The notes under the pieces are model-generated. The model did no database searches, was not told the DNA's origin, and saw only the letters and a list, made by a program, of their open reading frames with translations. A stretch of 53,318 nt of DNA from Acidobacteria bacterium RIFCSPLOWO2_02_FULL_67_21 (GTDB lineage: Bacteria; Acidobacteriota; Vicinamibacteria; Vicinamibacterales; UBA2999), in contig MEKU01000056.1 of assembly GCA_001767195.1 (NCBI GenBank), positions 49,289 through 102,606 of the forward strand, in the 5' to 3' direction. A program made the translations under genes and the position numbers. Positions 4,211-48,620 of this stretch are shown here, piece after piece. Each line of letters opens with the position of its first letter. Position 1 is the stretch's first letter.

Positions 4211-4297
4211 CAACCACGAAGCTCACGAAGGTCTCGAAGGGCACGAAAATGAAAATTCATTTCGTGTTCTTCGCGATCTTCGTGCCTTCGTGGTTAC
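4211..4297. repeat. Periodic-unit hairpin, CACGAAG flavour (probable bidirectional terminator)
   Basis: The 5' arm is caaccacgaag-ctcacgaag-gtctcgaag-ggcacgaaa and the 3' arm is tttcgtg-ttcttcgcg-atcttcgtg-ccttcgtggtt. It fills the convergent MFP/porin spacer and overlaps the porin stop. Confidence 0.85.
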
Positions 4298-5460
4298 CAA
4301 CTGACCCGCAAGCCAGTTGTCCACGCGACACCGGAGTAGGCGCCGCCGTCGTTGGCGCGGTCGTTCAGGTCGGCGAACTGCAGGCCCGTCTGCAGCTTGA
4401 GCTTGTGGCCGTAGATGAAGTAATTGCCGCCCACGTACAGCTCCTGGTACCGGTCGCCCCGGCCCCCGACCACCGTGTTCTCGTACGTCGCCAGTCGGAT
4501 GCCGTTCGGCCCGTCGCTGTCGAGAAACGTGTACCGCCCGATCGCCTGCAGCTTATCGGTCACGTTGTAATACGGCATCGTCATGAAGCCCAGTACATCC
4601 TGCTGGCCCAGGTAGCCCTGCGCGGTCGATAGATCGCTGCGCCATCCCCACCTGTCGGCCTCCACCTTGAAGCTCACCGACACGATGTTCTCGAGCTGGC
4701 GCGTGAACGTGTTGTCGCGGTCCGCCGTCTGGTGGACGTAGTTGCCCGCCAGCAGCGCCTCCTTCACGCCGAGCGCCTCCGCGAAGTCGTAGCCGAGCAC
4801 CGCCAGCGTCGCGATGCCCCCGTCGAACTTGCCGAACTCGCGGGTGGCCTCGCCGCCCGAGTACATCCCGACGCGGTACGTCCAGGGTGCCGCCTTCCCG
4901 GACACGCTGACGCCGGGAATGTATTCGTACGGGAACCAGATGTTGTTGGTCAGGTTGCTGCGATCGATCGCGAGGAGCTCCTTGGACGATGTGGCGCCGT
5001 CCATCGTGAACGGCATGCTGTGCTTCCCGATCGTCAGCGCCAGGCGAGGGCTCTTCGTCCACTGCACGTACATGTCGGTCAGTCGAACGTAGAGCGGGTT
5101 CGACTCCTGCGGGTTCAGCTCCACTTCCCCGTGAACCGTGATGGTTCGGAACAGCGTGATCCTCGGGCCCAACCGGAGGCGGCGCGTGTTCCACTCGTCG
5201 TGATCGCCCTGGTCGGCGTTGATCGCGGCGAACTCATGCTGGAACCGGCCGGAGAACAGCACCCGCTGGACAACCGGGTTCGACCGGTTGTCGTACAGCG
5301 TCGTGAACTCCTGCCAGATCTTGTCGAACGCGGAGCGTGTATCCGTGGCGCCGGAGGCCTGCGCAGCGGCCGCTGGAGCCGGCTGCGAGCCGGTCGACTG
5401 CGCGAGGGATGAACACGGGGCCGCCAGGAGCACGGCAAGGACGAGGCAGAATCTCTTCAT
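4294..5460 (-). CDS. Outer-membrane porin, OprO/OprP-like (putative)
   Basis: 388 aa with a signal peptide (MKRFCLVLAVLLAAPCSSLAQ). It shows alternating beta-strand-like sequence, an aromatic C-terminal residue (…GLRVSW) and Y/G/N/D-rich loops. The family assignment is from memory of Porin_O_P proteins. Confidence 0.7.
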   Translation of the reverse strand: MKRFCLVLAVLLAAPCSSLAQSTGSQPAPAAAAQASGATDTRSAFDKIWQEFTTLYDNRSNPVVQRVLFSGRFQHEFAAINADQGDHDEWNTRRLRLGPRITLFRTITVHGEVELNPQESNPLYVRLTDMYVQWTKSPRLALTIGKHSMPFTMDGATSSKELLAIDRSNLTNNIWFPYEYIPGVSVSGKAAPWTYRVGMYSGGEATREFGKFDGGIATLAVLGYDFAEALGVKEALLAGNYVHQTADRDNTFTRQLENIVSVSFKVEADRWGWRSDLSTAQGYLGQQDVLGFMTMPYYNVTDKLQAIGRYTFLDSDGPNGIRLATYENTVVGGRGDRYQELYVGGNYFIYGHKLKLQTGLQFADLNDRANDGGAYSGVAWTTGLRVSW

Positions 5461-5532
5461 ACCCTTCAGTTGTAGGACGTGCAGGTTTCACCCCAATGTC
5501 GCACGTGTTACATCTGCGTAAATCGGGGAAAC

Positions 5533-5660
5533 GGGCTTGGCTAAAGCCAAGCACTACGTGCGTCGTTGCACGACGTACTCGTACCGTCACGGTACGTAGT
5601 GCCGGGAACGTCGGTGTTACGTAGTCGGTGGTACGTAGTGCCGGGCTTCAGCCCGGCCCT
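5533..5660. repeat. Cluster of REP-like palindromes (CTACGT-flanked GC stems with TTCA/AA loops)
   Basis: The cluster contains gcttggct-aa-agccaagc-actacgtg, cgtcgt-tgc-acgacg, gtaccg-tca-cggtac and gtacgtagt-gccgggc-ttca-gcccggc. It lies between the porin start and the nuoG-like stop. Confidence 0.8.
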
Positions 5661-5661
5661 G

Positions 5662-7485: not shown

Positions 7486-7504
7486 ATCCCGGCGATCTTA
7501 TCAG

Positions 7505-7582
7505 CCGGTAGCTGGTAGCTGGTAGCTGGTAGCCTGCGGTCCGTGCTTTCGTTGGGCTACTGGCTACCACCTACCAGCTAGG
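7505..7582. repeat. Periodic-unit hairpin, GGTAGCT flavour
   Basis: (GGTAGCT)x4 at 7505-7534, a 20-nt loop, then ggctactggctaccacctaccagctagg at 7555-7582. It lies between the divergent nuoG-like and hypothetical gene starts. Confidence 0.8.
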
Positions 7583-7655
7583 CTGGCTCAGCTTGACTCG
7601 CACCGCCGCCCGCCCTAGAGTGCAGGGCAGTTTCACGCCTGCGCGGAGGTGCGAT

Positions 7656-8084: not shown

Positions 8085-8171
8085 GGGAACTCCCAACTTC
8101 CAACTCCCCAACTCCCAACAAAACGGCAGCTCTTTGGGATTTGGGCCTTGGGAGTTGGGCCTTGGGAGTTG
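8085..8171. repeat. Periodic-unit hairpin, CTCCCAA flavour
   Basis: gggaactcccaacttccaactccccaactcccaac, a 14-nt loop, then ttgggatttgggccttgggagttgggccttgggagttg. It spans exactly from one convergent stop codon to the other. Confidence 0.85.
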
Positions 8172-8172
8172 T

Positions 8173-10824
8173 TCAGAATCGCTCAAAGATCGCCACAGCC
8201 GCATAGTCGCGATTGATCTGCACCTGCTTGACCGTGCCCACCGGCCGCATCTTCCATTCAACCCGCGGATCGGTGACGGCGACGACGGTGTCCTGCACCC
8301 GCCCGTCGCTATAGACCACGCTGACGGTGACCGGCACGTCGAACGGTTCGCCCATCTGCTCGAAGCGGACCGTGACCGCATCGGGCGTCACCGCGCTCGA
8401 GTAGCGCAGCCGCGGCACGCCGGTGCTGTAGATCCAACGCTCGAAGAACCGGTCGAGCGGGCGGCCCGACTCCTGCTCGAACACCGCGCGGAGGTCCTCG
8501 GTCGAGGCGCTCCGGTATTTCTGCTCGGTGTAGAAGCGGCGCAGGCCGCCGAAGAACGCCTCCTCGCCGATGAGACGCCGCAGCATGTGCAGCACGGCCG
8601 CCCCTTTGTTGTAGACGAGCGCGCGGAAGACACGCGGCTCGCCCCGGATGTGGCCGAGGCGCGAGCCGAGCGCCACCGGGCCCTGCGGCGATTCGGCAAT
8701 CGCCCACCGCCTGAACTGGCGCAGCATGTTGATGAACGTCCGCTCCCCGCGCGTGTTCTGCGCGTAGAGCGCGGCGAAATACTGCGCGAACCCCTCGCTC
8801 AGCCACTGATCGTGGTACGTGCGCCAGCCGACGGCGTGTCCCCACCACTGGTGCGCCAGCTCGTGAGCGATGAAGAACTCGGGAAACGCGCTGAACGCGG
8901 CCGGATCGTTACGCCAGCTCAGCCGCGGAGCCGACACGGGATTATTCAGCACCGCGAGATACCCCGGGCTGTGGCCGCCCGGCAGCTCGTGCTCCACGAG
9001 CGCCACGGTCATGGATTCGTACGGCGCGTCGCCCATGATGCCGCCGTAGAACCGCAGGATCGACTTCACGTCGGGAAGCATGTTGCGCCCGCGGCTCTGC
9101 TGGCGAGGATTCGTGTCAATGGCCACTCGAACCCCGGCCGCAGCGCGGTCGCCCTCCGCCCCGCCGACCGCCACGGTCGTCTCGGCAACACGCACGAACC
9201 GGCTCACGACGACGGCAAAATACCGGAGCGGATCGCCGGCCGTGAACACGAACGACCGGCCGTCGGCCAGACGGAGGAGATCCCGGATTGACACCTCGTC
9301 GCCGGATCGCGGCTGGCCGCTCGCGACGCAGCCGTAGCCTTCGGGCACGACGATGCGCAGCGTTCCGGTGGCGTAGTCAGGGAAGGGATTCTGCGGATAC
9401 CAGAACGACCGGCTGCTCAGCAGCAGGTTGGGTTCGAGTGGAATCGCAAACGGGTCCTCGCGTGCCGGGTCGTCGACCTGCAGCCCTTCGTCCTCGATGT
9501 CCTGCCCCGACACGCTCCCCGCGTAGGCCACCACCAGGTTGACCTCGGTGTCGCCCGGCAGCATCAGCGGGAAGTTGACGACGATGTTGTTCTGCTCGTG
9601 GATGCGCACGTGCAGGAGCCGTCCGTACTCCGGACTCGCGACGCTCCTCACGGCCAGGTCGTCAGCCAGCCGCAGCGTGATGGCGGATACGCCCTCCCCG
9701 CGCACGCGAAGGCGCATGCGGACCTGTCCTTCGAGGAACCCGCGCTCCGGCGCGATGCTCGCCTCGATGTCGTAGTCGATCACGTCGTAGTCGCGGATGT
9801 CGTCGTCACCGACGAAGAGATCGTGGGGGCCGCGGCGGGCGGCCGACGGATACGCGGTGATGGTGCGGGACCGGTTGCTGTCGTAAAACGTGATGTCCTC
9901 CGTCAGCCTTCCCGACCGGGAGTACGTCAGCACGCCGTGCCGGCGCGTCTGCACCTCGGCGACGAAGTCGCCCGACGGGGGGAGGAAGTACCAGATCTCG
10001 CTGCTCAGCTCGCGCAGATCGAGGCTGTAGAACTGAGGCCCCGATCGCGCGAGGAGCTCGTGGGCGCGGCGGAGCTCACGGGGGTTCACCGGCGCCGGCG
10101 TCAGGCTCGCGGTGGACACCCGCTCCTCGTACTCGAGCGGATTCAGCCGGACGAACGCCGACGTGAACGGCGCGTCCAGCGTCTCGGCGCCGGAAAAGAT
10201 CCGGAGCTGGCCGCGCTCGGTGTCCGGCCCCGGCGAAAAGCGCATCAGGCCCCGCCCGAACAGAATGAGACCGGTGATCCCGGCATCGCTTTCAATCTGA
10301 AACACGGAGCCTTCAACCAGGGTGATCGACAGGTCTTCCGCCGAGATCGTCAGGTTGCGGACCGTCGACTGTGTCGACGCATTGAGCCGGAGCCGGTACA
10401 GTCCTTCGATCGACCCGGTCACCACCGCGGCGATGATGCGCCACGAGTCCAGCGCCCCGCCGTTGGGCCGGCGCAGGTCCAGCGCGAGGGTGACGATGCG
10501 CGCACGCTGCGTCGCTTCGGTGAAAAGCTCGGCGATGACCCGGTAGCCATCGCCTGGCAGCGCGCCGTTGAGCGGCGCGCGATCGCGCTCTGTGACGACG
10601 GCGCGGCGCGTGTCAGGAGCGAAGAGGTCCGCCGCAAGCGCCTCGACGTCGGCGGAGGGGAAATCGGCGGACAGCAGCGCCGGCAGGCCGGCCTGATTGC
10701 CCGTTTCGACCAGCGCGTCGAACTGGGAGAGCAGAAGGGTGACGCCGTCCTGCGGATCGGTCTGCGCCGGCGCCAGGCCCGGCCCCGCCAATACAAACGC
10801 AAGGACGGCAGCGAGCCGGGCCAT
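8173..10824 (-). CDS. M1-family zinc metallopeptidase (aminopeptidase N-like), secreted
   Basis: 883 aa with a signal peptide. It carries the gluzincin motif HELAHQWWG-x-…-E with exactly 18 residues between the second His and the Glu (HEXXH-X18-E). Confidence 0.85.
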   Translation of the reverse strand: MARLAAVLAFVLAGPGLAPAQTDPQDGVTLLLSQFDALVETGNQAGLPALLSADFPSADVEALAADLFAPDTRRAVVTERDRAPLNGALPGDGYRVIAELFTEATQRARIVTLALDLRRPNGGALDSWRIIAAVVTGSIEGLYRLRLNASTQSTVRNLTISAEDLSITLVEGSVFQIESDAGITGLILFGRGLMRFSPGPDTERGQLRIFSGAETLDAPFTSAFVRLNPLEYEERVSTASLTPAPVNPRELRRAHELLARSGPQFYSLDLRELSSEIWYFLPPSGDFVAEVQTRRHGVLTYSRSGRLTEDITFYDSNRSRTITAYPSAARRGPHDLFVGDDDIRDYDVIDYDIEASIAPERGFLEGQVRMRLRVRGEGVSAITLRLADDLAVRSVASPEYGRLLHVRIHEQNNIVVNFPLMLPGDTEVNLVVAYAGSVSGQDIEDEGLQVDDPAREDPFAIPLEPNLLLSSRSFWYPQNPFPDYATGTLRIVVPEGYGCVASGQPRSGDEVSIRDLLRLADGRSFVFTAGDPLRYFAVVVSRFVRVAETTVAVGGAEGDRAAAGVRVAIDTNPRQQSRGRNMLPDVKSILRFYGGIMGDAPYESMTVALVEHELPGGHSPGYLAVLNNPVSAPRLSWRNDPAAFSAFPEFFIAHELAHQWWGHAVGWRTYHDQWLSEGFAQYFAALYAQNTRGERTFINMLRQFRRWAIAESPQGPVALGSRLGHIRGEPRVFRALVYNKGAAVLHMLRRLIGEEAFFGGLRRFYTEQKYRSASTEDLRAVFEQESGRPLDRFFERWIYSTGVPRLRYSSAVTPDAVTVRFEQMGEPFDVPVTVSVVYSDGRVQDTVVAVTDPRVEWKMRPVGTVKQVQINRDYAAVAIFERF

Positions 10825-10844
10825 GACGCTCCCCTGGCTAGATG

Positions 10845-12029: not shown

Positions 12030-12060
12030 CCGGCCAGTATAGGCCGCCGCCGCACGCCGG

Positions 12061-12426: not shown

Positions 12427-12477
12427 AGGCCCCGGCGGATTACGCGGCAACCGGCGTACCGCAGCGCGGGTTTCATG

Positions 12478-12520
12478 ACGTAGTGCCCGGCTTGAGCCGG
12501 GCTGAAGCCCGGCACTACGT
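12478..12520. repeat. REP-like palindrome (same family)
   Basis: acgtagt-gcccggc-ttga-gccgggc-tgaa-gcccggc-actacgt is a three-arm GC stem with TGAA-type loops and inverted ACGTAGT/ACTACGT flanks. Confidence 0.8.
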
Positions 12521-12545
12521 ACAAGTTGGTGCGTGCAGTGCGACG

Positions 12546-14549: not shown

Positions 14550-14552
14550 CGC

Positions 14553-15596: not shown

Positions 15597-15600
15597 AAAT

Positions 15601-15667
15601 ACAACTTCCAACCCCCAAGACGCCAACTCCCAAATTGGGAGTTGTGAAGTTGGGCGTTGGAAGTTGT
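15601..15667. repeat. Periodic-unit hairpin, CTTCCAA/CTCCCAA flavour
   Basis: acaacttccaacccccaagacgccaactcccaa-a-ttgggagttgtgaagttgggcgttggaagttgt. The arm ends are perfectly complementary. It lies downstream of the aminotransferase stop at 15667. Confidence 0.85.
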
Positions 15668-16887: not shown

Positions 16888-17040
16888 CCAGCGTCCATCT
16901 TACACGCGTGCCCGCGAGACCTCTGAACGGCCTGCCCTGATACACACCTCAGGCAAAATGCGTGTAACAATTACATATGGGGGCTGCCGCCCACGACGGA
17001 CGGGTTCTCCCAAGTTGTTGAAAACAGGTCGCTAATCAGA

Positions 17041-18042
17041 GTGGCAAGACGATTGAACTGTTGGAGCGCCGTGACGCACCGGTTTCTGGCGGTTCCCATT
17101 CTGACGGCCGCGATGCTGCCGGCGCCTCCCGGGGCGCTCGACGCCCTTCAGACCTCGGCGGTGTCGGCTCAGGGTCCGGCCACGACATTCAAGGCCGGCG
17201 TCGAGGTCGTCACCGTGACCGCCGGGGTTCGCGACCGGAAAGGGCGCGTCGTCCGCGATCTGCAGCGGGCGGATTTCGAGGTCGTCGACAGCGGCATTCG
17301 CCGCGACATCCGTGACTTCTACGCGGGCGAAGCGCCGGTGAGCGTCGCCTTTCTGCTCGACATCAGCGGCAGCATGGCGGTCGGCGGCAATATCGAGCGG
17401 GCCCGGCATGCCATTGCGGTGGCCACCGGCATGCTCAGGAACGAGGACGAGGCGGCGCTCTTCACATTTGATGCGTCGCTGCAGGAAGTGGTCGGGTTCA
17501 CGCGCGATCTCGATCGGGTTCGCCGCGTGAGCCTGGAAGGGAAGCCCTGGGGCATGACCTCCCTTTACGACGCGGTGGCTGCAGCGGCAAGGGCGGTCGC
17601 CAGCCGGTCGAACCGGCATCGCGCGCTGCTCGTGATCACCGACGGCGTGGATACCGGCAGCCGGCTCACGGCGCCCGAGGTGTCGGGGATCGCCAGCTCG
17701 ATCGATGTGCCGGTCTATCTGCTGGCGGTGGTCTCGCCGCTCGATCATCCGGGCGGCGAGCTGTCGGTGCTGGCCGCTGACGACGTGGCGACGAGCACGG
17801 CGACGCTGGCGGATCTGGCGCGGTGGACCGGCGGCGACATGCGCGTCGCCAGCCAGCCCGCACACGCGGTGGCCGCCACGCGGGATCTGTTCGAAGAGCT
17901 TCGGTATCAGTACCTGATCACGTTCGACCCGGATCCGCGGCCGGGTTGGCACCCGCTCGAAGTACGCACACGAAACAAGAGCCTGACCGTCCATGCACGT
18001 GGCGGATACATATCTGGCCCGGCGCAGTCGGAACACCACTAG
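17041..18042 (+). CDS. VWA domain-containing protein (TIGR03436 acidobacterial VWFA-related type)
   Basis: FKAGVEVVTVTAGVRDRKGRVVRDLQRADFEVVD is followed by the MIDAS-like DISGSM. It is a paralogue of 50097..51110. The start codon is GTG. Confidence 0.8.
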   Translation: MARRLNCWSAVTHRFLAVPILTAAMLPAPPGALDALQTSAVSAQGPATTFKAGVEVVTVTAGVRDRKGRVVRDLQRADFEVVDSGIRRDIRDFYAGEAPVSVAFLLDISGSMAVGGNIERARHAIAVATGMLRNEDEAALFTFDASLQEVVGFTRDLDRVRRVSLEGKPWGMTSLYDAVAAAARAVASRSNRHRALLVITDGVDTGSRLTAPEVSGIASSIDVPVYLLAVVSPLDHPGGELSVLAADDVATSTATLADLARWTGGDMRVASQPAHAVAATRDLFEELRYQYLITFDPDPRPGWHPLEVRTRNKSLTVHARGGYISGPAQSEHH

Positions 18043-18763: not shown

Positions 18764-18844
18764 AGAGGACCTCAACTCCCAACTCCCAATACCCAATTCC
18801 CAAGTCCTTGGGAGTTGGAAGTTGGGAGTTGGGAGTTGGGAGTT
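18750..18844. repeat. Stop-codon-centred 10-bp hairpin followed by a CTCCCAA-flavour periodic hairpin
   Basis: aggtcctctc-cta-gagaggacct (18750-18772) encloses the OmpA stop. Then ctcaactcccaactcccaatacccaattcccaag / ttgggagttggaagttgggagttgggagttgggagtt follows. It fills a convergent spacer. Confidence 0.85.
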
Positions 18845-19490
18845 ATCGTAGTCTCGCCAAGTCCAGCAGGACCCTTCCCAGTTCTTTCCCCGACTCTTCA
18901 ATCACGACCTCATAGCGGCCGCGGGTGTCGAGCCGCGCGCTGTCGAACGCGGCGAGGACGATGCCGCCGGTGAGGGGCTGACCGGCGGGCGGTAATTGCA
19001 GCGGGATCGGGTACGGTGTCGGAAACGGCCCGCTGGCGAGCCGTGGACCGAAGCGAGGAATCCGCTGCACGGCAGACGGCGCCGCCGGCGGCTCCGACAC
19101 GCCGGCGCGCGCCAGAGTGATCGCGTACGCCGGCACGCCGACGTACGTATTGAGCGGGTGAAACGTCAGCTCCAGGAACAGTTCGAGCCGGCCGCCATGC
19201 TCCGCCAGCGCGGCAATCGCCTCGACCTGGCGCATCCGCGCCAGGCCCAGACGCGCACGTTCCTCGGCGGCGAGCTCGAGCCTCCGGAACGGCGTGACCA
19301 GGTCGAGGGAGTCGACAGGCGGCCGGTTGACTTCGACCCGATACGGCGCATGAAAGCGCGCGCGCACCGACTCGATCGGCGACTGGCCGATCGCGATCGC
19401 CTCGTCGATGGCCTGCGGATTCAGAGCGGGATCGTACGCAGCTGCAGCGGAAACAACAAAGGCGGCAAGAATGGCGCCCCGCACCGGCAT
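18843..19490 (-). CDS. Hypothetical secreted protein
   Basis: 215 aa with a signal peptide (MPVRGAILAAFVVSAAAA). The composition is coding-like and I recognise no family. Confidence 0.6.
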   Translation of the reverse strand: MPVRGAILAAFVVSAAAAYDPALNPQAIDEAIAIGQSPIESVRARFHAPYRVEVNRPPVDSLDLVTPFRRLELAAEERARLGLARMRQVEAIAALAEHGGRLELFLELTFHPLNTYVGVPAYAITLARAGVSEPPAAPSAVQRIPRFGPRLASGPFPTPYPIPLQLPPAGQPLTGGIVLAAFDSARLDTRGRYEVVIEESGKELGRVLLDLARLR

Positions 19491-19525
19491 GGTATGGATC
19501 GTAGCAAAGCCAGCGCCCCAATACG

Positions 19526-19589
19526 GGCCACAGAGGCACAGAGTTACAGAGAAAGCTTCATTCCTCTGTGTCTCGGTGTCTCTGTGGCT
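19526..19589. repeat. Periodic-unit hairpin, CACAGAG flavour
   Basis: ggccacagaggcacagagttacagagaa, a loop, then ttcctctgtgtctcggtgtctctgtggc. It lies downstream of the CHRD gene stop. Confidence 0.85.
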
Positions 19590-19595
19590 CGTATC

Positions 19596-21064: not shown

Positions 21065-21085
21065 ACGTGGTGCCCGGCACTACGT
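21065..21085. repeat. Minimal REP-like palindrome (same family core)
   Basis: acgtggtgcc-c-ggcactacgt. A separate 7-bp hairpin aatgccg…cggcatt follows at 21098-21118. Confidence 0.6.
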
Positions 21086-22791: not shown

Positions 22792-22807
22792 GGCATTTCA
22801 CATTCAC

Positions 22808-22876
22808 GAGCCACAGAGACACAGAGCCACAGAGGTCTTGAGCCAGTTTTTATCTGTGTCTCTGTGGCTCTGTGGC
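22808..22876. repeat. Periodic-unit hairpin, CACAGAG flavour
   Basis: gagccacagagacacagagccacagagg, an 18-nt loop, then ctgtgtctctgtggctctgtggc. It lies in the convergent cupin/MetF-like spacer. Confidence 0.85.
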
Positions 22877-22881
22877 CCGTT

Positions 22882-26010: not shown

Positions 26011-26048
26011 ATATCAGGCCCCAGGGCTCAGACCCCAGGGCGCAGACC
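26011..26048. repeat. Left arm of a split periodic hairpin (CAGGGCT flavour)
   Basis: atat-caggccc-cagggct-cagaccc-cagggcg-cagacc, starting 11 nt outside the DPP4-like start codon. Its partner is at 28797-28814. Confidence 0.55.
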
Positions 26049-26168
26049 TCCGTGCCGCTGTCCATGGAGCCGGACTTGTCGGCGAGGCACGATGCCGACC
26101 GGCCTATTTTTGCGCGCCTTCCAGCCAGATCCGGCGCAAGTAGCGTGCACACTGCACGTTGATGGCAA

Positions 26169-26197
26169 TTGAATCGGCTCAGGCGTCGGAATAGACT
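26169..26197 (+). promoter_or_regulatory. Candidate sigma70-like promoter upstream of the methyltransferase
   Basis: TTGAAT (26169-26174), a 17-nt spacer, then TAGACT (26192-26197), 86 nt upstream of the ATG at 26284. This is pattern match only, and acidobacterial promoters may differ. Confidence 0.3.
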
Positions 26198-26283
26198 GCG
26201 ACCGCCTGCAGGCGCATTGGATTATCGAGTTCGGTCGACTGCTGGTTGGGCGTCATGAAGCAGTATCGCTTGCGGAGGAAGGG

Positions 26284-27288
26284 ATGAAAGAACCAGCATC
26301 GCGAGCACCACGAAACAGGACGCTGGCAATCTCTGAGCATGATGCCGAACGCCTGCGTAGGCGACTGCTTGTCGTCGATCAGCCCTTGGCTCTATCGGAG
26401 TGCGCTGGGCGAACCATCCTCGGCGACTCCTTGTTGGTCCTGCCCCTATTGCCCAAGCAATCTGTGGATTTGCTGATCGTTGACCCGCCATACAATCTAA
26501 CCAAGGCCTTCAGCGGCTCTACATTCAAGAAACAGCCCCTCGCGGCATACGAAGAGTGGCTCCATTCCTGGCTCGCGCTGGCAGTCGGACTCTTGAAGCC
26601 TTCCGCCTCAGTGTACGTGTGCAGCGAATGGCGATCCTCGGGAGTCGTCCAACGTGCTCTTGAACGGTACTTTCTTGTTCAGAACCGGATCACGTGGGAA
26701 CGCGAGAAGGGTCGTGGTGCTTTACGAAACTGGAAGAACTGCTCCGAGGACATTTGGTTTTGTGTTCTTAGCGACCAATACTTCTTTGACGTAGAGGCCG
26801 TGAAGCAGAAGCGCCGTGTGATTGCGCCCTATCGTGACGCAGACGGAAAGCCGAAGGACTGGAACGAGGAAGCCAACGGCGGTTTCCGACTGACCCACCC
26901 TTCAAATCTCTGGACTGATATCTCGGTTCCCTTCTGGTCGATGCCAGAAAACACGGAGCACCCGACTCAGAAACCAGAGAAATTGTTCGCCAAGCTGGTG
27001 CTCGCTAGCTCCAAACCCGGAGACTGCGTGCTCGATCCCTTCTTGGGTTCCGGCACCACGTCAGTCGTAGCAAAGAAACTCGGGCGACAATTCATCGGGA
27101 TTGAGCAAGAGGAGATCTACTGCCTGTGTGCTGAGAAGCGATTGGAGTTAGCTCATAACGAGCCGTCGATTCAGGGCTACTCCGGTGGCTACTTCTGGGA
27201 GCGCAATTCCCTCGCGTTCCAGGACACGAACAACACAACGCCGAGTTCCAACGCAACCGGTCAGTCTTTCCTGTTCGAGGACAACTGA
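26284..27288 (+). CDS. Beta-class DNA methyltransferase (N6-adenine or N4-cytosine) of a type II R-M system
   Basis: Motif IV (LLIVDPPYNL) lies N-terminal to motif I (VLDPFLGSGTT). That IV-before-I order defines the beta class. GGAGGAAGGG lies immediately upstream of the ATG. GC is about 52 % versus about 70 % in the flanks. Confidence 0.9.
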   Translation: MKEPASRAPRNRTLAISEHDAERLRRRLLVVDQPLALSECAGRTILGDSLLVLPLLPKQSVDLLIVDPPYNLTKAFSGSTFKKQPLAAYEEWLHSWLALAVGLLKPSASVYVCSEWRSSGVVQRALERYFLVQNRITWEREKGRGALRNWKNCSEDIWFCVLSDQYFFDVEAVKQKRRVIAPYRDADGKPKDWNEEANGGFRLTHPSNLWTDISVPFWSMPENTEHPTQKPEKLFAKLVLASSKPGDCVLDPFLGSGTTSVVAKKLGRQFIGIEQEEIYCLCAEKRLELAHNEPSIQGYSGGYFWERNSLAFQDTNNTTPSSNATGQSFLFEDN

Positions 27289-27950
27289 TGAGGAGCCGGC
27301 TCTTTCATAGCAATGACTACGTGTTGGTCCAGGACCGCGTGAGGGACTTGATCAATGGCAGTCCAGATTTCCTATCGAAGAACACCGCCCAGAGCCCGAG
27401 GGCTGCGGGGGATGCCATCGAGAACGTGGTCGCGGCATCCTTCGAGAACATTCTTGGCGAGCACTGTGGCGAGTACTCCTCGAACTTCGCCCGCCGGGCA
27501 ATGGCTGACCTCGCGTTTAAGGATCGCGACGGTCTGTACTACATCGTCGATGTCAAGACGCACAGGACCGACACGAAGTTCAACATGCCGAACCTTACCT
27601 CTGTAGAACGGCTGGCGCGTTTCTACGAGGACGACAGCAATGTCTTCACGGTTCTCCTCGTCAGCTACAGCGTCGAGGGTGTGAAGGCACAGGTCACCCA
27701 TGTCACATTCGTGCCCATCGAGTTCCTCGGATGGGATTGCCTAACGATTGGGGCGCTCGGTTGGGGCCAGATTCAGATAGCCAACTCGAATCGAGTGACC
27801 GTGAATCCTGGGTACGCGCGGAAGCGTTGGATGCTGGAGTTCTGCGATGTGATGTTGGAGTTCTACCCGAAAGAAATCGCTAAGATCGGCGATCGCGTAT
27901 CTCGCTTCCAGCAGGTCCGTGAGTTCTGGTCGAAACACTCCGACGACTGA
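27288..27950 (+). CDS. Putative type II restriction endonuclease (PD-(D/E)xK-like)
   Basis: The ATG overlaps the methyltransferase stop (TGATG). It is 220 aa and has the same low GC. The candidate catalytic signature is MAD…(14 aa)…DVK within ADLAFKDRDGLYYIVDVKTH. The family is not recognised, so the call rests on context plus this motif. Confidence 0.6.
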   Translation: MRSRLFHSNDYVLVQDRVRDLINGSPDFLSKNTAQSPRAAGDAIENVVAASFENILGEHCGEYSSNFARRAMADLAFKDRDGLYYIVDVKTHRTDTKFNMPNLTSVERLARFYEDDSNVFTVLLVSYSVEGVKAQVTHVTFVPIEFLGWDCLTIGALGWGQIQIANSNRVTVNPGYARKRWMLEFCDVMLEFYPKEIAKIGDRVSRFQQVREFWSKHSDD

Positions 27951-28026
27951 CGCCCAACACGGCATGCAGCCGACGGCGCGAGTGATTCAGCGCGCCGCGG
28001 CTGATGCCTGCCGTTGAGGGTTCGCG

Positions 28027-28233
28027 ATGAAGCTGGGGGAACTGCTCGAGATGGTTCAGGACATGGATCGCCAGAATCCTGGTGAACGGGCGCTCCGGTT
28101 TCAGACTTGCCTCGATTCCGGGGCGCACAGGCTTCAGGAACTCCGCCGCGTCTCTGGCAGGCAGCAGACCTACTGCCTGGATTGCCTGACGTGGTTTGTC
28201 GATGGCACGGCTCAGAACCCTCCGAGACGCTGA
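28027..28233 (+). CDS. Hypothetical small protein (68 aa), uncertain
   Basis: ATG with GAGGG 6 nt upstream. The N-terminus looks helical (KLGELLEMVQDMD) and there is one CxxC (CLDC). Antisense ORFs of similar length exist, so coding status is unresolved. Confidence 0.3.
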   Translation: MKLGELLEMVQDMDRQNPGERALRFQTCLDSGAHRLQELRRVSGRQQTYCLDCLTWFVDGTAQNPPRR

Positions 28234-28437
28234 TGCACTGTGCCGGTCGGGCAAAAAACGGAACGATGAATCGGAATGGCCGATACCGACTCATGATCTG
28301 CCTAACACCGCATGCACCAGACGGCAGTAGCGCATTTTAGGGGCGCCGCTGGTGAGGCGTTGCCGTTGCCACACCAAAGCCACGATTCGAGCACGGCGGA
28401 CGCATACTCGAAATGTCTCATTTGCGAGAGGTAAGGC

Positions 28438-28794
28438 ATGGAGGCCCAGATTCCCGGCGTCCACTCGGATCCAGACATTCTCGGCGGAACGCCTGTGTTC
28501 GTCGGAACGCGCGTGCCTGTCAAGGCGTTGCTCGACTACCTGGAACACGGCCGACCGCTAGCCGGTCAGCAGACGAAGTATTCCGCGAGGCTCGGGCTCG
28601 GATCTAGCCTGTGCGCGTCACGTTCAACGAGTTGGCCGAGCGCGAACTCAAGGACGCGGCGCAGTACTACGAGCGTGAACAATCCGGGCTTGGCACCGCA
28701 TTCATCGCGGAAGTACGGCGATGTGCCGGGGATGGTGCCGCGGGCGAGCGCCAATCCGTTGGGCCGACGCGACGTCCCCAGGAACAATCGGTGA
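28438..28794 (+). pseudogene. DUF433-like antitoxin-type gene, probably frameshifted
   Basis: The first ~40 aa (DPDILGGTPVFVGTRVPVKALLDYLEHG) match the DUF433 signature. After about aa 45 the translation turns to low-complexity sequence and runs through the neighbouring ParE-like ORF. Confidence 0.5.
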
Positions 28795-28811
28795 GCGGCC
28801 CTGAGCCCTGA
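28611..28811 (+). pseudogene. RelE/ParE-family toxin remnant (frameshifted and 3'-truncated)
   Basis: After the GTG start, RVTFNELAERELKDAAQYYEREQSGLGTAFIAEVRRC matches the N-terminal half of ParE-like toxins of about 100 aa. The expected continuation (…ANPL…RDV.R) appears in another frame (28438 frame: ASANPLGRRDVPR). The ORF then ends inside the hairpin arm at 28797-28814. Confidence 0.55.
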
Positions 28812-28814
28812 TAT
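28797..28814. repeat. Right arm of a split periodic hairpin (CAGGGCT flavour)
   Basis: ggccctg-agccctg-atat. Its reverse complement atat-cagggct-cagggcc matches the left arm (atatcagg plus gctcag) if one 7-nt unit is skipped. It ends 9 nt before the MBL gene ATG. Confidence 0.55.
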
Positions 28815-32966: not shown

Positions 32967-33028
32967 GCCGACCTGAAGGTCGGCCTCTACGAGGGTTCCG
33001 TAGAGGCGGACCTTCAGGTCCGCCTAAC
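32963..33028. repeat. REP-like composite palindrome spanning both convergent stop codons (malQ/glnS)
   Basis: gt-aggccgacc-tgaa-ggtcggcct-ctacg-agggttc-cgtag-aggcggacc-ttca-ggtccgcct-aac. This is two TGAA/TTCA-loop hairpins around a central CTACG/CGTAG stem. Confidence 0.8.
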
Positions 33029-34709: not shown

Positions 34710-34725
34710 GAGGAGACATTATTGA

Positions 34726-37285: not shown

Positions 37286-37303
37286 TCGCTGTCGGTCACA
37301 CCA

Positions 37304-37309: not shown

Positions 37310-37320
37310 TGGTGTTTCTG

Positions 37321-38538: not shown

Positions 38539-38627
38539 ACCACGACGACACGAAGATCTCGAAGAACACGAAGTCATTATGAAAACGGGTCTTCGTGGCC
38601 TTGGTGATCGTCGTGATCTTCGTGGTT
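38539..38627. repeat. Periodic-unit hairpin, CACGAAG flavour, between DUF1015 and serA
   Basis: aaccacgacgacacgaagatctcgaagaacacgaag, a 17-nt loop, then cttcgtggccttggtgatcgtcgtgatcttcgtggtt. The 3' arm ends 4 nt before the serA ATG. Confidence 0.85.
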
Positions 38628-38631
38628 GATT

Positions 38632-39861: not shown

Positions 39862-39865
39862 GGAT

Positions 39866-40945: not shown

Positions 40946-40946
40946 G

Positions 40947-40972
40947 CACGGAGGGGACGGAGGCACGGCAAC
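40947..40972. repeat. Left arm of a split periodic hairpin (CACGGAG flavour)
   Basis: cacggag-gggacggag-gcacggcaac begins 2 nt after the serC stop. 40949-40965 (cggaggggacggaggca) is the perfect reverse complement of 42744-42760. Confidence 0.75.
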
Positions 40973-41043
40973 TATGTCGTGGCGTTTACACTTCCTGACG
41001 CGCGGCCCAATACTCGCTGCCGATCAGCTTTCGCCGCTGATCC

Positions 41044-41265
41044 TTAGCACTCGAGTCGGTGGTCCGGCTCCCAGAACTCGCACCCAGCGCATTCTTCCTC
41101 GGTCACGTGGGGTGGAGCGCATTCCACCGTAAGGCGTGTGCGACGCGGCCGCACACACACCCACGGGCCGCCCGGCTGTTCGGGGATGTCAACGAACTGG
41201 GAAGCCAGCCGAGTCCACTGGCAGTTCCAGGGGAACTGCACGCCTTTCTTTGCGACTTCTGGCAT
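41044..41265 (-). CDS. Hypothetical small Cys-rich protein (73 aa)
   Basis: ATG with AAGG 7 nt upstream. It has six Cys including CAGC (CxxC) and a C-terminal Cys. A 7-bp hairpin (GATCAGC…GCTGATC, 41022-41042) follows the stop. It lies in the low-GC island and I recognise no family. Confidence 0.4.
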   Translation of the reverse strand: MPEVAKKGVQFPWNCQWTRLASQFVDIPEQPGGPWVCVRPRRTRLTVECAPPHVTEEECAGCEFWEPDHRLEC

Positions 41266-41794
41266 TTGAAGCCTTAGAGTTGCGGCGCAGCAAGTGCCGT
41301 GCCCTTAACGGCTCCGCGAGTTCTATAAGCATTTGCAGGTGTCGGGACACGGGCCTGCAGGATCTTGATCAGTCGTGCCGTGAAATGTCCGATCCCATGC
41401 TGGAAATCCCACGGGTTGTATCTCGCAGAACATGATCGGTCGGAGCAGCCCGTGTCGGAGCGGATCTTTGGAACGCTGGTTGCGCCGCGATGGCCGCGTT
41501 CTCCGTTTCTGTCAGATTCCTTCGGTAAATCCTTGGCGACAAAATGATGCGCTAGTAAACACTGGGCTTTCCGCGTAACTCACATTCAGCTCGCGAATAG
41601 CGTTTCCGGATTCGGTCGTTGGCTTGCGTCTGTTCGCGTCAGGCTGCTGCGTGCGCCCGGGTTACTTGCAGCGGGTCAGTGCGAGTATTCGACCATCCTT
41701 GCCATCGTCTGGCGCCTGAAGTTCATCGAACATCGGTGCGCTCGCGGGCGCTCGGCGGCGTGGCGCTCGATTCGACTGAGCGGCCGGCAAGATA

Positions 41795-41832
41795 GGTAAC
41801 AGATCAGTCCGGCCCCGGACCGTTCTGTTACC
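41795..41832. repeat. 38-nt nested imperfect palindrome
   Basis: The sequence is GGTAACAGA-tca-GTCCGG-cc-CCGGAC-cgt-TCTGTTACC. It has a 9-bp outer stem plus a 6-bp inner stem and sits in the non-coding stretch upstream of 41965..42468. Confidence 0.7.
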
Positions 41833-41964
41833 CTTCTCTCCGGACCGCACCTATCGACCGGCTAACCGAATGGAGCCGACGCGCCAGGAGTTTCCTGCGA
41901 TCATGTCGCCGCGGCGCGCGGCTCATTCGGAACGTCTAGGCCCGCATTGAGGAACAGCAAGGCA

Positions 41965-42468
41965 ATGAAAGTCAATCAGTCAAACAATTCTGACCCAGGC
42001 TTCGGAAGTACAACATGGCGAGCAACGGGTCTCGTTGTACTAGCGGTCTTGCTAGGCAATGTCAACGCGCTGGTCGACTCTGTTCTCCACCCGGAGATTT
42101 CGTACTTCGATCGGGAGCATCTCATCGTGGGAGGCGTTACGGCCCTCGCCAGCGCAGTGCTCTCCTTTCTATTGATTCGCTACGAGCGTCACCTGAACAG
42201 AGCAATAGACACTATCGATCATCTTGAAGCGATTCTACCGATTTGCTCCAACTGCAAGAAGATTAGAAGGAGCGACGAAGGGCTAAATGTTGCGGAGTCC
42301 TGGCAGTCAATAGAGTCGTATTTCACTGAGAAGACGCGCTCGGAGTTTAGCCATGGTATTTGCCCAGAATGCATGGTGGCCCTCTATCCAGATTCCGTGC
42401 CGAGCCCGACAGCGAAGGACGCCGACATACGTGGTCACGCGCCGACCGCACGCCGCAATGAGGCCTAA
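41965..42468 (+). CDS. Membrane-anchored protein with C-terminal four-cysteine CxxCKKIR…FSHGICPEC module
   Basis: I prefer the ATG at 41965 (AAGG upstream) over the TTG at 41947. It has two TM helices (GLVVLAVLLGNVNALV and VGGVTALASAVLSFLLI). The C-terminal ILPICSNCKKIRRSDEG…WQSIESYFTEKTRSEFSHGICPECMVALYP matches a recurrent uncharacterised Cys4 module. Confidence 0.75.
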   Translation: MKVNQSNNSDPGFGSTTWRATGLVVLAVLLGNVNALVDSVLHPEISYFDREHLIVGGVTALASAVLSFLLIRYERHLNRAIDTIDHLEAILPICSNCKKIRRSDEGLNVAESWQSIESYFTEKTRSEFSHGICPECMVALYPDSVPSPTAKDADIRGHAPTARRNEA

Positions 42469-42704
42469 CACGTTTGCAGCCGTCGGCGACTGGCGCGACA
42501 ATGAGCCGTCGCGGTCGTATCCGCACTCCCAATCATCGGCGGAATCGCATTGACACTGGCGCGGCGCCAGCCAGGCGCCGGTCACTCCGCGGCGTGGAGG
42601 GGACCTCGCTCAGACCACATGTCGGAGCGCCTCGAGCCTCCAGAGGTAGTTGGCGATCTGATTCCAACTGGCGAACGTCAGGTCCTGACAGTTTTCTCTC
42701 CATT

Positions 42705-42760
42705 CACCCTCCGTTCCTCCGTGTCTTCTCCGGGTACGACCGTTGCCTCCGTCCCCTCCG
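42705..42760. repeat. Right arm of a split periodic hairpin (CACGGAG flavour)
   Basis: caccctccgt-tcctccgtg-tcttctccg…ttgcctccgtcccctccg ends 1 nt before the pcnB stop codon. The last 17 nt are perfectly complementary to 40949-40965. Confidence 0.75.
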
Positions 42761-44065
42761 CTAACTCTGCGTCGCGGCGCGTGGCCGCCGCCTGCGCCTT
42801 CGCCGCCGCCGCGGCGGCCCGGGTTCGGTCGCCTCCGCGTCGCCCTCGAACGCTCCTGCCGCTTCGATGAACCCGCGCCAGTGCTCGAGCGCCTCGGGCG
42901 CGCTGCCGTGAATCTCCAGCCAGGTGAGGGCCTCCCGGAACGGCCCTCGATGCATCAGCGCGCGCCGTGCACGGGGCGACGCGTCCTGGTCGAGCAGCCG
43001 CCGCTGGAGCGAGAGAACGTGCTGCAGGCGATCGACGTCGCGGCGCGGAAGCGGCAGCATGCCGAGCGAGAGCGCCGGCTCCTTCCCCCTGCCGGTGCGC
43101 ACCGCCGGCGCCGGCGCGAGCAGCCCGCCGATCCCCAGCCCCAGCGGAACGATGAGCGAGCCGAGCAGAATCGGGTTCGTGAGGGTGTCCGGCGTCTCCT
43201 CGAACCGGGCGAGATAGCGGTCGAGCGCCGCCAGCGACTGCCACAGCGCATCGCCGCAGCGGGTCTGGAACTGCGGCGCGATCGGCTCGAGCAGCCGGCG
43301 CTCGGCCAGCATCCGGAACGCCTTCTCGGAGGCGCCCGCCCGCAGCAGTTTGTAGAGCTCCTCGAGCAGCCGCGCCGGCGCGCTTTTCGCGATCTCGGTG
43401 CGATGCGCGGCAATGGCGGCGTCGATCGGCGGATCGATGGCGAAATCGAGCCGCGCCGCCATCGCGACCGCCCGCAGCATGCGAACCGGATCCTCCTGGA
43501 ACCGCTCGGTCGGGTCTCCGATGCACCGGATCAGGCGCGTGCGGAGGTCCTCGAGCCCCCCGGTGTAGTCGATGATGGAAAACGTGGCGATGTCATAGAA
43601 GAGCGCGTTGACGGTGAAATCCCGCCGGAACGCATCCTCTTCGGGCGTGCCGAACGTGTTGTCCCGGTGCAGCAGCCGCACGTGGCCGTCTGTGCCCTCC
43701 TCGTCAACCGGAATGGCGTGCGCCAGCTGGGCGTCGACGGCGGCGAGCTCTTCGGCGGACAGCTGGCGCCTGAACGTCGCCACCTCAATCGCCTTGGGTC
43801 CAAACCGCACGTGCGCCAGACGGAACCGGCGCCCGATGATCCAGCAGTTGCGGAACAGCCGCTTCACCTGATACGGATGCGCGGACGTGCCGATGTCGAA
43901 ATCCTTGGGCCGGTGGCCGAGCAGCAGATCGCGGACGCTGCCGCCGACGAGGTAGGCGAGGAAGTGGTGCTGATGCAGCCGATACAGAACTCGCAGGGCG
44001 TCGGGATCAATCTGCTTGCGTGAAACCGAGTGCGCGTCGCGCGGCACGATGACCGGCTGGCTCAT
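42761..44065 (-). CDS. pcnB: Poly(A) polymerase I / tRNA nucleotidyltransferase-family protein
   Basis: 434 aa with LVGGSVRDLLLG…PKDFDI (the nucleotidyltransferase GG-x-VRD and DxD). FRNCWIIGRRFRLAHV is typical of PcnB. It has an Arg-rich C-terminal tail (PRRRRRRRRRPR). Confidence 0.85.
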   Translation of the reverse strand: MSQPVIVPRDAHSVSRKQIDPDALRVLYRLHQHHFLAYLVGGSVRDLLLGHRPKDFDIGTSAHPYQVKRLFRNCWIIGRRFRLAHVRFGPKAIEVATFRRQLSAEELAAVDAQLAHAIPVDEEGTDGHVRLLHRDNTFGTPEEDAFRRDFTVNALFYDIATFSIIDYTGGLEDLRTRLIRCIGDPTERFQEDPVRMLRAVAMAARLDFAIDPPIDAAIAAHRTEIAKSAPARLLEELYKLLRAGASEKAFRMLAERRLLEPIAPQFQTRCGDALWQSLAALDRYLARFEETPDTLTNPILLGSLIVPLGLGIGGLLAPAPAVRTGRGKEPALSLGMLPLPRRDVDRLQHVLSLQRRLLDQDASPRARRALMHRGPFREALTWLEIHGSAPEALEHWRGFIEAAGAFEGDAEATEPGPPRRRRRRRRRPRAATQS

Positions 44066-44128
44066 CTACCTCCTGACTCCCAATCCTTGCCCCCTTGCCC
44101 CCTGAATTGTAATGCTACGATCGGCGGG

Positions 44129-44938: not shown

Positions 44939-44971
44939 GGAGAGACACAAGGCGCTAAAGAACGTTTCCAC

Positions 44972-45042
44972 GAGCCACAGAGCCACAGAGGCACAGAGCT
45001 TTTTGAGTGAATTCCTTCTCTGTGTCTCTGTGACTCTGTGGC
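44972..45042. repeat. Periodic-unit hairpin, CACAGAG flavour
   Basis: gagccacagagccacagaggcacagag, a 19-nt loop, then ctctgtgtctctgtgactctgtggc. It lies in the convergent TPR-like/polA spacer. Confidence 0.85.
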
Positions 45043-45063
45043 CCCGTGAAAGTGAAGGCGGTT

Positions 45064-47790: not shown

Positions 47791-47825
47791 GCGGATGGCT
47801 TCAGGCCGCAGGATATCATTGGGCT

Positions 47826-48563
47826 TTGATGGCATCCGGACGGCGGCGGATCGCAGGCGTCGCAGGGCTCGTGACGGCTGCCGTGCTCGCCTCCGGGTGC
47901 AGCCGTGCGGCGCTGCTCGAGCCCGAGTACGAGTACGAAGAGGAGGTCTACCTCTCGCTCGACGGCTCGGCGCGGGTGAACGTCCATGCGTCGGTTGCCG
48001 CGCTCGTGGCGCTCCGCGGCGCAATTCTAGATCCCGATCCGCTGGCGCGCCTCGATCGCGACTACGTGCGCCGGTTCTTCGGCGCGCCGGCCAACCGCGT
48101 CTCCGTCAGCCTGGCACGACGCGACGGCCGCCGCCTCATTCACGCGGGCATTCAGGTCGACGACCTGCGGCAGGTGTCGAAGCTGGCGCCGTTCGCCTGG
48201 TCGGAGTACCGGCTCGAGCGGCGCAGCGACACGTTCGAGTACCGCCAGTCAGTCGGCGCGCCGGCCGCCCCCGGCCGCCGGCTGCCGCCCTGGACCGGAC
48301 AGGAGCTCGTCGCGTTCCGGTTCCATCTGCCGAGCGAAGTGACGTTCCACAACGCGCCGTCGGGCGAGATCGAGCGTGGCAACATCCTGCGGTGGGCGCA
48401 GCCGCTCGGCGAGCGGCTCGACGGGCGCCCGGTGGACATTCAGATGCAGTTCGAGGCCACGTCCATTCTCGCCAACACCCTGCTCCTCTTCGGCGCCACG
48501 ATGGTGGCCGCGCTGGCCGCGATGGCGGGGGTGGTGTGGTGGATCAGACGGAGCGGGACATAA
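47826..48563 (+). CDS. Hypothetical lipoprotein with C-terminal TM helix
   Basis: It has a lipobox (VLASGC) and a C-terminal hydrophobic helix (LLLFGATMVAALAAMAGVVWW). It is divergent from polA. Confidence 0.65.
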   Translation: MMASGRRRIAGVAGLVTAAVLASGCSRAALLEPEYEYEEEVYLSLDGSARVNVHASVAALVALRGAILDPDPLARLDRDYVRRFFGAPANRVSVSLARRDGRRLIHAGIQVDDLRQVSKLAPFAWSEYRLERRSDTFEYRQSVGAPAAPGRRLPPWTGQELVAFRFHLPSEVTFHNAPSGEIERGNILRWAQPLGERLDGRPVDIQMQFEATSILANTLLLFGATMVAALAAMAGVVWWIRRSGT

Positions 48564-48620
48564 AATCCCAAATCCCAAAGACCGCACTTGTTGGGATTTG
48601 GTCATTGGGATTTGGGATTT
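48563..48620. repeat. Periodic-unit hairpin, ATCCCAA flavour
   Basis: aaatcccaaatcccaaag, a 10-nt loop, then ttgggatttggtcattgggatttgggattt. It lies in the convergent lipoprotein/BON spacer. Confidence 0.85.

Follow-up and report, generated by a model that had tools for sequence, protein, structure and literature searches.

Many intergenic spacers in one stretch of Acidobacterium DNA are filled by long hairpins whose arms consist of tandem 7–9-nt units, which raises the question of whether such hairpins arise where they stand or come to these sites as finished sequences, and of what they do there. The stretch, referred to here as the window, comprises 53,318 bp (GC 67.5%) of contig MEKU01000056.1 from Acidobacteria bacterium RIFCSPLOWO2_02_FULL_67_21, an Acidobacterium of a soil or groundwater setting. 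Among species-representative genomes, the GlnRS closest to that of the window belongs to a Vicinamibacterales metagenome-assembled genome (77% identity). It contains ten intact hairpins, at 4211, 7505, 8085, 15601, 18770, 19526, 22808, 38539, 44972 and 48563, and two split elements with arms at 26011/28797 and 40947/42705. A first reading of the sequence, called here the original prediction, had described them as U-tract-less bidirectional terminators that diversify by slippage. Comparison with other contigs shows that the elements are inherited and spread as fixed sequences, and are not formed in place by slippage. The reading that we favour, with a probability of roughly 0.6, is that they belong to a few dispersed families of long palindromes, which would share the tandem build of the cyanobacterial repeats abbreviated STRR (for short tandemly repeated repetitive) and the behaviour of repetitive extragenic palindromes (REPs), form hairpins at the 3' ends of mRNAs and accept gene cassettes in their loops.

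All of the predicted elements, the ten intact and the two split ones, were found in place in the sequence, and an inverted-repeat search of the window paired both arms of every intact element. The intact hairpins are 58–91 nt long with 3–5 tandem units per arm, as had been claimed and as is also evident from Tandem Repeats Finder (period 7–9, 2.4–5.4 copies per arm). An arm is a short run of a 7-nt core with 0–2 variable linker bases, so that the period is 7 for GGTAGCT, CTCCCAA and ATCCCAA, 8 for CACAGAG+N and 9 for CACGAAG+NN. The earlier tally of unit flavours (CACGAAG at two loci, CACAGAG at three, CTCCCAA/ATCCCAA at four, and GGTAGCT, CACGGAG and CAGGGCT at one each) was reproduced. A recount likewise found the 5' arm A-rich and the 3' arm T-rich in nine of the ten intact hairpins, the exception being 7505; because the elements are palindromes, this polarity is the same on whichever strand is read. 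Every intact element folds as a single long hairpin on both strands, with a minimum free energy (MFE, in kcal/mol) between −32 and −59 for the + strand and between −31 and −54 for the − strand, and with z-scores of −2.3 to −11.5 across both strands. The stems measure 25–35 bp and are broken chiefly at the linker bases between units. A pattern detector that required a 5-mer in three or more spaced copies and, no more than 60 nt further on, two or more copies of its reverse complement recovered nine of the ten intact elements in the window, whereas 100 dinucleotide-preserving shuffles averaged 0.26 and never exceeded 2. Rfam gave no family match over the entire window, and rRNA matches were likewise absent.

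The position of the elements relative to genes was analyzed with a gene map drawn from same-population contigs and Pfam, which defined about 40 junctions between neighbouring genes. All 12 elements are intergenic, and they seldom lie between divergent genes. Tandem-unit hairpins were present at seven of nine convergent junctions (one of the seven being the split element at 40947/42705), at three of 23 co-directional junctions and, as an intact copy, at one of eight divergent junctions, that is, at 7/9 convergent versus 4/31 other junctions (Fisher p = 5e-4). The split element at 26011/28797 likewise lies in a divergent region and stands outside these counts. Among the convergent copies, the CACGAAG hairpin at 4211..4296 (period 9, four units per arm; MFE −53.8 on the + strand and −46.6 on the − strand) separates the stop codons of an HlyD-like gene (4206) and a porin gene (4294). 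CTCCCAA hairpins are found at 8085..8174, between hyp142 and an M1 peptidase gene, and at 18765..18847 (five units per arm), between OmpA and hyp215; the 8085 hairpin shows the weakest internal pairing of the ten (z −2.3 and −3.9). CACAGAG hairpins are located at 22806..22880 (period 8, three units per arm), between hyp217 and hyp271, and at 44965..45051, between hyp263 and PolA, and a hairpin of ATCCCAA units with an irregular GACC unit is located at 48563..48620, between hyp244 and a BON gene. The co-directional copies comprise the CTCCCAA-type hairpin at 15601..15667, which takes up the 70-nt spacer from the aminotransferase stop to the AI-2E transporter start (both genes being on the − strand), the CACAGAG hairpin at 19521..19594, with the CHRD stop on one side and the hyp215 start on the other (both −), and the CACGAAG hairpin at 38539..38628, in an orientation opposite to that at 4211 and flanked by the DUF1015 stop and the SerA start (both +). 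The GGTAGCT hairpin at 7503..7593 (period 7, four units per arm) lies between the starts of a NuoG-like gene and hyp142; it is the sole intact copy in a divergent spacer and the sole copy lacking the A/T polarity of the arms.

The arms start 0–7 nt past stop codons and at times overlap the stop bases, and the elements occupy almost all of their spacers, in agreement with the original prediction. Of the remaining two convergent junctions, one has overlapping genes and the other, MalQ/GlnRS, holds a different palindrome: two inverted GTAG-type REPs (CGTAGAGGCGGACCTTCAGGTCCGCC), without tandem units, make up its whole spacer at 32964-33026, which folds as one hairpin (MFE −44.4 kcal/mol). Thus, some palindrome is present at each convergent junction that possesses a spacer.

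Like intrinsic terminators, the elements are stable hairpins just past stop codons, and being symmetric they could act both ways; unlike them, they have stems of 25–35 bp rather than 5–14 bp and no U-tract, and they also occur in co-directional pairs without room for a promoter. We counted at most four T within 10 nt after any stem on either strand, and a terminator scan of the window picked up none of the elements and gave chance-level matches only, all inside genes. The part of the original prediction that concerns U-tract-less hairpins at gene 3' ends stands. Hairpin terminators poor in U-tracts have been proposed for high-GC bacteria, and an origin as bidirectional terminators that arise and diversify in place by slippage, with selection for a stable stem only, would account for the strong enrichment at convergent junctions in a window without canonical terminators. 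It would also fit the G/U-rich arm, which is 3' in transcripts from either side in nine of ten elements and could, as a substitute for a U-tract, make the RNA:DNA hybrid less stable. In Xanthomonas, heptamer repeats coincide with starts or stops of transcripts more frequently than control sites do (PMC4692102). Efficient termination is argued against by three window hairpins in co-directional spacers, where the following gene starts a few bases past the stem, and by some high-GC phage-like contigs, in which complete hairpins fill co-directional spacers with the start codon 2–25 nt further on. In relatives, moreover, the same convergent junctions are spacers of 1–24 nt without a hairpin.

The slippage part of this explanation is contradicted by sequences shared between loci. 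The original prediction had taken the arm pattern as a sign that units are gained and lost, and not that a fixed sequence is copied. The hairpins 15601, 18770, 19526 and 22808 showed no difference at all over five same-population contigs that are 99.8–100% identical. The hairpins at 22808 and 44972 have common ends, ACGAGCCACAGAG...CTCTGTGGCCCGT, and that at 19526 is an inverted copy of the same type. The reverse complement of 4211 aligns to 38539, including the linker dinucleotides. The irregular unit in AAATCCCAAATCCCAAWGACCAAATCCCAA is found in the window at 48563 and in two different spacers of the relative contig L087, and one of these L087 arms, at a different locus, matches the 3' arm of 48563 without a mismatch along 31 nt. 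Among the matches listed from public contigs, CACAGAG arms have fixed non-repetitive ends (RATT-N-GCC...) across contigs of 31–73% GC. Since irregular units, ends and linkers are shared across loci, and in part with other genomes, the elements were not made by slippage, and we consider an origin as terminators formed in place quite unlikely.

The history of individual sites was followed in syntenic contigs of relatives, gathered via homologues of hyp215 and of PolA. The hairpin at 15601 is retained in contig L092 (at 13792) with 89–92% identity, and three of the four changes within the element are at unpaired positions. The genes that flank it are 77–78% identical in DNA sequence and 54–61% identical at third codon positions, and two divergent spacers display 44–57% identity, near the shuffled baseline of 47%. 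This element has stayed in place, almost unaltered, through deep divergence, and its conservation far exceeds that of neutral positions. Other sites show replacement or absence. The CHRD/hyp215 spacer holds a CACAGAG hairpin in the window, ATCCCAA in L086 and L087, a TGACGAAT-type element in L092 and none in L090. The PolA/hyp263 spacer holds CACAGAG in the window, a CAGGGCT-type element in L094 and L095, and is an empty spacer of 13 nt in L096 and L097. For hyp215/OmpA, CTCCCAA in the window corresponds to ATCCCAA in L086 and L087 and to a spacer of 1–2 nt in L090 and L092. The 48563 hairpin is missing from L095 and L096, and the spacers of L090, L092 and L096 measure 1–24 nt at junctions that bear hairpins in the window. 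The comparison of orthologous spacers thus revealed retention, replacement by another flavour or absence, and no drift of unit number between strains; the wholesale swap of flavour at one site is a further point against slippage.

Such turnover would also be expected of purely selfish miniature mobile DNA, comparable to miniature inverted-repeat transposable elements (MITEs) or to REPINs (REP doublets forming hairpins), which would lack a host function and follow stop codons merely since it is harmless there. Presence, absence and replacement at orthologous sites agree with this, as do the two orientations, the defined terminal sequences (the arms act like terminal inverted repeats with fixed ends), the broad and patchy distribution that includes viral contigs, the selfish genes found as cargo, and the lack of both RNA-strand asymmetry and covariation described below. 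It does not explain why the 15601 element is about 90% identical to its orthologue where neutral positions are near saturation, with most changes confined to unpaired positions. Neither a transposase nor a REP-associated tyrosine transposase (RAYT) is found among the window genes, no duplication was seen when filled and empty sites were compared, and the several copies between genes of compact phage-like contigs suggest use. We regard a purely selfish nature of the elements as unlikely.

Both split elements of the original prediction proved to be real, and each encloses an insert of low GC. In the first, the 5' arm at 26011..26048 (CAGGGCT/CAGACCC units) abuts the start codon of a DPP-IV gene, and the 3' arm at 28797..28814 (CCCTGAG, CCCTGAT) lies just upstream of the start of a beta-CASP gene; the two could pair in a stem of about 21 bp. 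The insert between them (26049..28796, + strand) has a GC content of 55–63% versus 68%. It encodes a type II DNA methylase at 26284-27288 (Pfam N6_N4_Mtase; PADLOC 9e-63) and an overlapping open reading frame (ORF) of 220 aa at 27288-27950, without a match in Pfam, NCBIfam or PADLOC, which is probably the endonuclease partner of the methylase, as yet unrecognised as a restriction enzyme. Directly inside the 3' arm, at 28438-28811, are a truncated DUF433 antitoxin-like ORF, with a match limited to residues 9–40, and a short N-terminal fragment of a ParE/RelE-like gene, which together look like decayed toxin-antitoxin genes.

At the same DPP-IV/beta-CASP site, L092 has homologous arms (ATATCAGGCC... 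/ ...GGCCTGATAT) and a different cargo, a four-helix-bundle gene at 3328-3708 (TIGR02436 1.1e-26; PF05635). Such genes, 70–74% identical to each other, were found at three sites in related Vicinamibacteria, the other two being L095 18835-19227 and L096/L097 18852-19214. Inverted arms of the CAGGGCT type flank the gene in L096/L097, and in L095 the array is one-sided. As these similar genes occupy different sites and each stands beside CAGGGCT-type arrays, the four-helix-bundle gene seems to be a mobile small gene. The window itself contains no such ORF, as judged by tblastn with three of these proteins as queries.

The 5' arm of the second split element, at 40947..40972 (CACGGAG units), begins 3 nt past the SerC stop codon, and its 3' arm at 42744..42764 abuts the PcnB stop codon. 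Positions 40949-40965 and 42744-42760 are an exact 17-nt complement, and a second array, of CCTCCGT units, is found near the 3' arm at 42708-42732. The insert (40973..42743; 1.77 kb, GC 52–62%) holds a single sizeable ORF at 41947-42468, whose 173 aa include a predicted membrane segment and a C-terminal CxxC...CPxC and have no family match; a public gene caller places no gene within the insert. At the SerC/PcnB junction, L095 has a spacer of 24 nt and L096 one of 3 nt, and arms as well as insert are missing from the two; the window has therefore gained both.

The arms seen in the window turn up in many bacterial lineages and also in phage-like contigs, and pairs of them can enclose small selfish genes. 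Public metagenome contigs with GCCACAGAGNCACAGAG yielded at least 120 loci at a GC content of 31–73%. Among the matches listed, the majority have a third unit and the ends RATT-N-GCC...GGC-N-AATY; CACAGAG is followed by CTCTGTG no more than 160 nt away 54 times, versus 4 times for the reverse order; ten CACAGAG/CTCTGTG arm pairs are 161–2,000 nt apart; and, by a crude gene call, most compact copies adjoin at least one stop codon. Genes of the GxxExxY/PD-(D/E)XK type lie between or beside the arms in L102, L111, L135, L143 and L217, with matches to TIGR04256 (4.9e-43) and PDDEXK_3 (1.7e-41). The layout of L217 leaves zero spare bases: the host stop codon is followed by an arm, the ATG, the rest of the gene and the other arm. 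L109 carries a GIY-YIG gene as cargo (2.3e-17), and between the CACAGAG arms of L100 are intact DUF433, DUF5615/PIN and ParE toxin genes. The cargo-bearing relatives thus encode nucleases and toxin-antitoxin genes, and recognised transposases were not among the cargo.

IMG/VR contigs gave 85 stretches with the CACAGAG arm and 76 with the AACCACGAAGNNCACGAAG arm. Some of these contigs display solo arms, or two or three flavours in series, for example CTCTGTG x3 followed by CTTCGTG x3 (L329 780-990, 5160-5360 and 8110-8220; L311 620-750; L378 1140-1290 and 8230-8380). The serial arms have no nearby complementary partner, and there are also arrays with an 85-nt period, each holding an arm. Applied to the glnS flanks of 80 species-representative genomes, the detector further identified the same architecture with other units in metagenome-assembled genomes of Acidobacteriota, Chloroflexota, Ignavibacteriota, Planctomycetota, Spirochaetota and Deltaproteobacteria.

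Arms that stand alone or in mixed series are a reason to consider that the hairpin may be secondary, and that the tandem cores would instead be bound by a protein that forms multimers (S23p/Avd-like four-helix-bundle pentamers or a nucleoid protein, for instance) or form G-quadruplexes or i-motifs. The cores are conserved across phyla, while the linkers vary freely without covariation; S23p crystallized as a homopentamer (PMC4990558), and the G3N4 units CTCCCAA, ATCCCAA and CAGGGCT match heptamers that fold as G-quadruplexes in vitro (PMC4692102). Yet one genome contains at least six unrelated flavours with a common architecture, which does not suit a single binding protein, and the 54-to-4 polarity of arm order among the matches listed is as expected of a hairpin unit. 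CACAGAG, CACGAAG and GGTAGCT lack G-runs, and a complementary arm would outcompete a G-quadruplex. With half of the flavours lacking G-runs, the G-quadruplex was ruled out as a common denominator, and we judge a role of this kind to be very improbable altogether.

If the elements are hairpins at mRNA 3' ends, as we favour, transcripts from either side would carry the same RNA, a C/A-rich arm, the loop and a G/U-rich arm, folded into a stem of 25–35 bp that would define or protect the 3' end. The stem could be a barrier to 3' exonucleases, or, being of sufficient length, a substrate for RNase III like the stems of rRNA intervening sequences and the intergenic sites of phage T7, or a partial terminator, its U-rich 3' arm taking the place of a U-tract. 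Co-directional copies leave no room for a promoter and so would not be efficient terminators, which favours 3'-end processing or protection, or partial termination. The loop would be a harmless point of entry for cassettes, as in rRNA intervening sequences, and cassettes might enter when dispersed arms of one flavour recombine, or by homing, in which a nuclease encoded by the cargo cleaves empty hairpins.

Several results weigh against this interpretation. No RNA run was found to contain the window organism. Contigs from peat and permafrost metatranscriptomes cover a related CACAGAG locus, L114, and one of them reads through the hairpin, which at this locus stands between divergent genes; 3' ends cannot be mapped from assembled contigs, and assemblies tend to break at repeats. 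The outer linkers of CACAGAG hairpins gave 21 Watson-Crick pairs, 10 G-U pairs and 27 mismatches in 58, and thus no covariation (36% Watson-Crick versus 33% expected) and no sign of selection at the RNA level. Neither was there a signal in strand stability, as the sense strand gave the more stable fold in 6 of 13 co-directional hairpins. As for the route of spread, the absence of a visible target-site duplication between filled and empty orthologous sites counts here as well, as does the lack of a transposase or RAYT among the window genes, for which no genome-wide RAYT search was made. The relatives that lack hairpins at the same junctions imply that any host function is dispensable site by site. 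Finally, the serial and solo arms are beyond a simple hairpin model and are not explained by it.

A wider interpretation, which we put forward tentatively, is that heptamer hairpins in general, including STRR and the Xanthomonas repeats, are the empty forms or landing pads of a widespread and so far undescribed class of small cassettes, with the intervening sequence (IVS) of 23S rRNA as its special case in rRNA. The arms would bracket one selfish gene or a few (PD-(D/E)XK GxxExxY, GIY-YIG, pentameric four-helix-bundle S23p/Avd-like, toxin-antitoxin or restriction-modification), a stem that RNase III can cleave would render the insertion harmless, and the cassettes would move among arms of the same flavour by homing or by arm-to-arm recombination.

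The architecture is already published for other phyla (cyanobacteria, Xanthomonas), and the original prediction was wrong in assuming that the class had no formal description. STRR have been known since 1990 and the Xanthomonas and Nostoc repeats since 2015, without an explanation. In heterocystous cyanobacteria, 7-bp tandem STRR form hairpins in intergenic regions, such as hupS-hupL; there are several unit flavours per genome, and roles in transcript stability or translational coupling have been proposed (PMC2670836). The window elements resemble them in their tandem intergenic units of about 7 nt, in forming hairpins and in having multiple flavours per genome, but STRR have been described for cyanobacteria alone and many of them are one-sided arrays. 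To our knowledge, neither turnover at orthologous sites nor cross-phylum conservation of arms nor cargo-bearing forms have been described for STRR.

Rehm et al. (2015) found GGGAATC heptamers at about 185 loci per Xanthomonas genome, mostly with 4 units and 89–93% intergenic; on average they begin 28 nt past the upstream ORF or overlap its stop codon, 70–75 inverted pairs are capable of forming stem-loops, and the loci are depleted between divergent genes (PMC4692102). Similar GGGGA(T/C)T heptamer repeats occur in Nostoc (PMC4692102). These units resemble the ATCCCAA/AATCCC flavour of the window, but they are read as G-quadruplex formers with one flavour per genus, whereas the window elements include several flavours free of G-runs, have fixed arm ends and in some pairs enclose genes. 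A search of paper texts for tandem CACAGAG strings gave no match in a bacterial context.

REPs are dispersed extragenic palindromes that follow genes or lie between convergent genes, and in E. coli they stabilise upstream mRNA and affect translation near stop codons. REP, REPIN and BIME elements are mobilised by RAYT transposases. Those with GTAG and CGTC tags have been reviewed (PMC3733652), and a further review is PMC3116915. The window elements are likewise dispersed palindromes with a 3' or convergent placement in both orientations, but REPs are 20–40 nt long, carry a GTAG or CGTC tag and have no tandem units, as opposed to 58–91 nt and tandem sub-repeats here. GTAG/CTAC was found near two of the ten elements, one being the context of a stop codon.

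The IVS in Coxiella 23S rRNA contains an S23p four-helix-bundle ORF within 28-bp terminal inverted repeats and is cut by RNase III; such sequences are regarded as selfish and of unknown origin and mobility (PMC4990558). An ORF of the same TIGR02436/PF05635 type lies between inverted arms in L092 and L096/L097. An IVS is located in helix 25 or 45 of 23S rRNA, whereas the window copies are all between protein genes, have arms of tandem heptamers, are mostly empty, and belong to a group with additional cargo of GxxExxY, GIY-YIG, toxin-antitoxin and restriction-modification genes. Integron attC sites, which have RYYYAAC ... GTTRRRY core sites and form a cassette array beside intI, were rejected as a match: the flanks here are housekeeping genes (PolA, GlnRS, SerA), the window has no integrase, and the CTCCCAA flavour alone is loosely like the cores.

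New with respect to these systems are the several flavours in one Acidobacterium, the fixed-sequence families with defined ends and the histories at orthologous sites, as well as the conservation of arms across phyla and very different base compositions, their presence in phage-like contigs and the link to IVS-type cargo. If correct, our interpretation would link STRR with REP-like 3' hairpins and with the question of how IVS arose, and would make hairpin loops entry points for defence and addiction genes, such as the type II methylase island in the window. For annotation, the hairpins probably mark mRNA ends in many uncultured high-GC soil bacteria, where terminator finders fail.

The window also contains a second, classical family of repeats, GTAG-headed REPs (ACGTAGTGCCSGGCTTSAGCCSGGC) that are partly inverted dimers, at 5544-5559, 5594-5606, 5633-5659, 12478-12520 and 21065-21085. 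Their motif ACGTAGTGCCSGGC has six matches in the window, compared with 0.57 expected from shuffles, and these REPs lie in the co-directional spacers porin/NuoG-like, DUF5658/DUF6311 and SDR/glyoxalase. A perfect direct repeat, CCTTGCCC x2.4, is located at 44085-44103 in the divergent PcnB/hyp263 spacer and has no inverted partner. Across the 20 kb compared between same-population contigs, the sole length variation is a 15-bp in-frame indel in the DUF6311 gene at 13797-13807 (L082 and L084 versus the window). In the divergent aminotransferase/VWA_CoxE spacer (window 16888-17070; L090 3078-3294; L092 12379-12572), two motifs are kept in distant relatives while the remainder is saturated, GTTCAATCGTCTTGCCA and the palindrome TGTAATTGTTACAC, and both are likely to be binding sites of a regulator.

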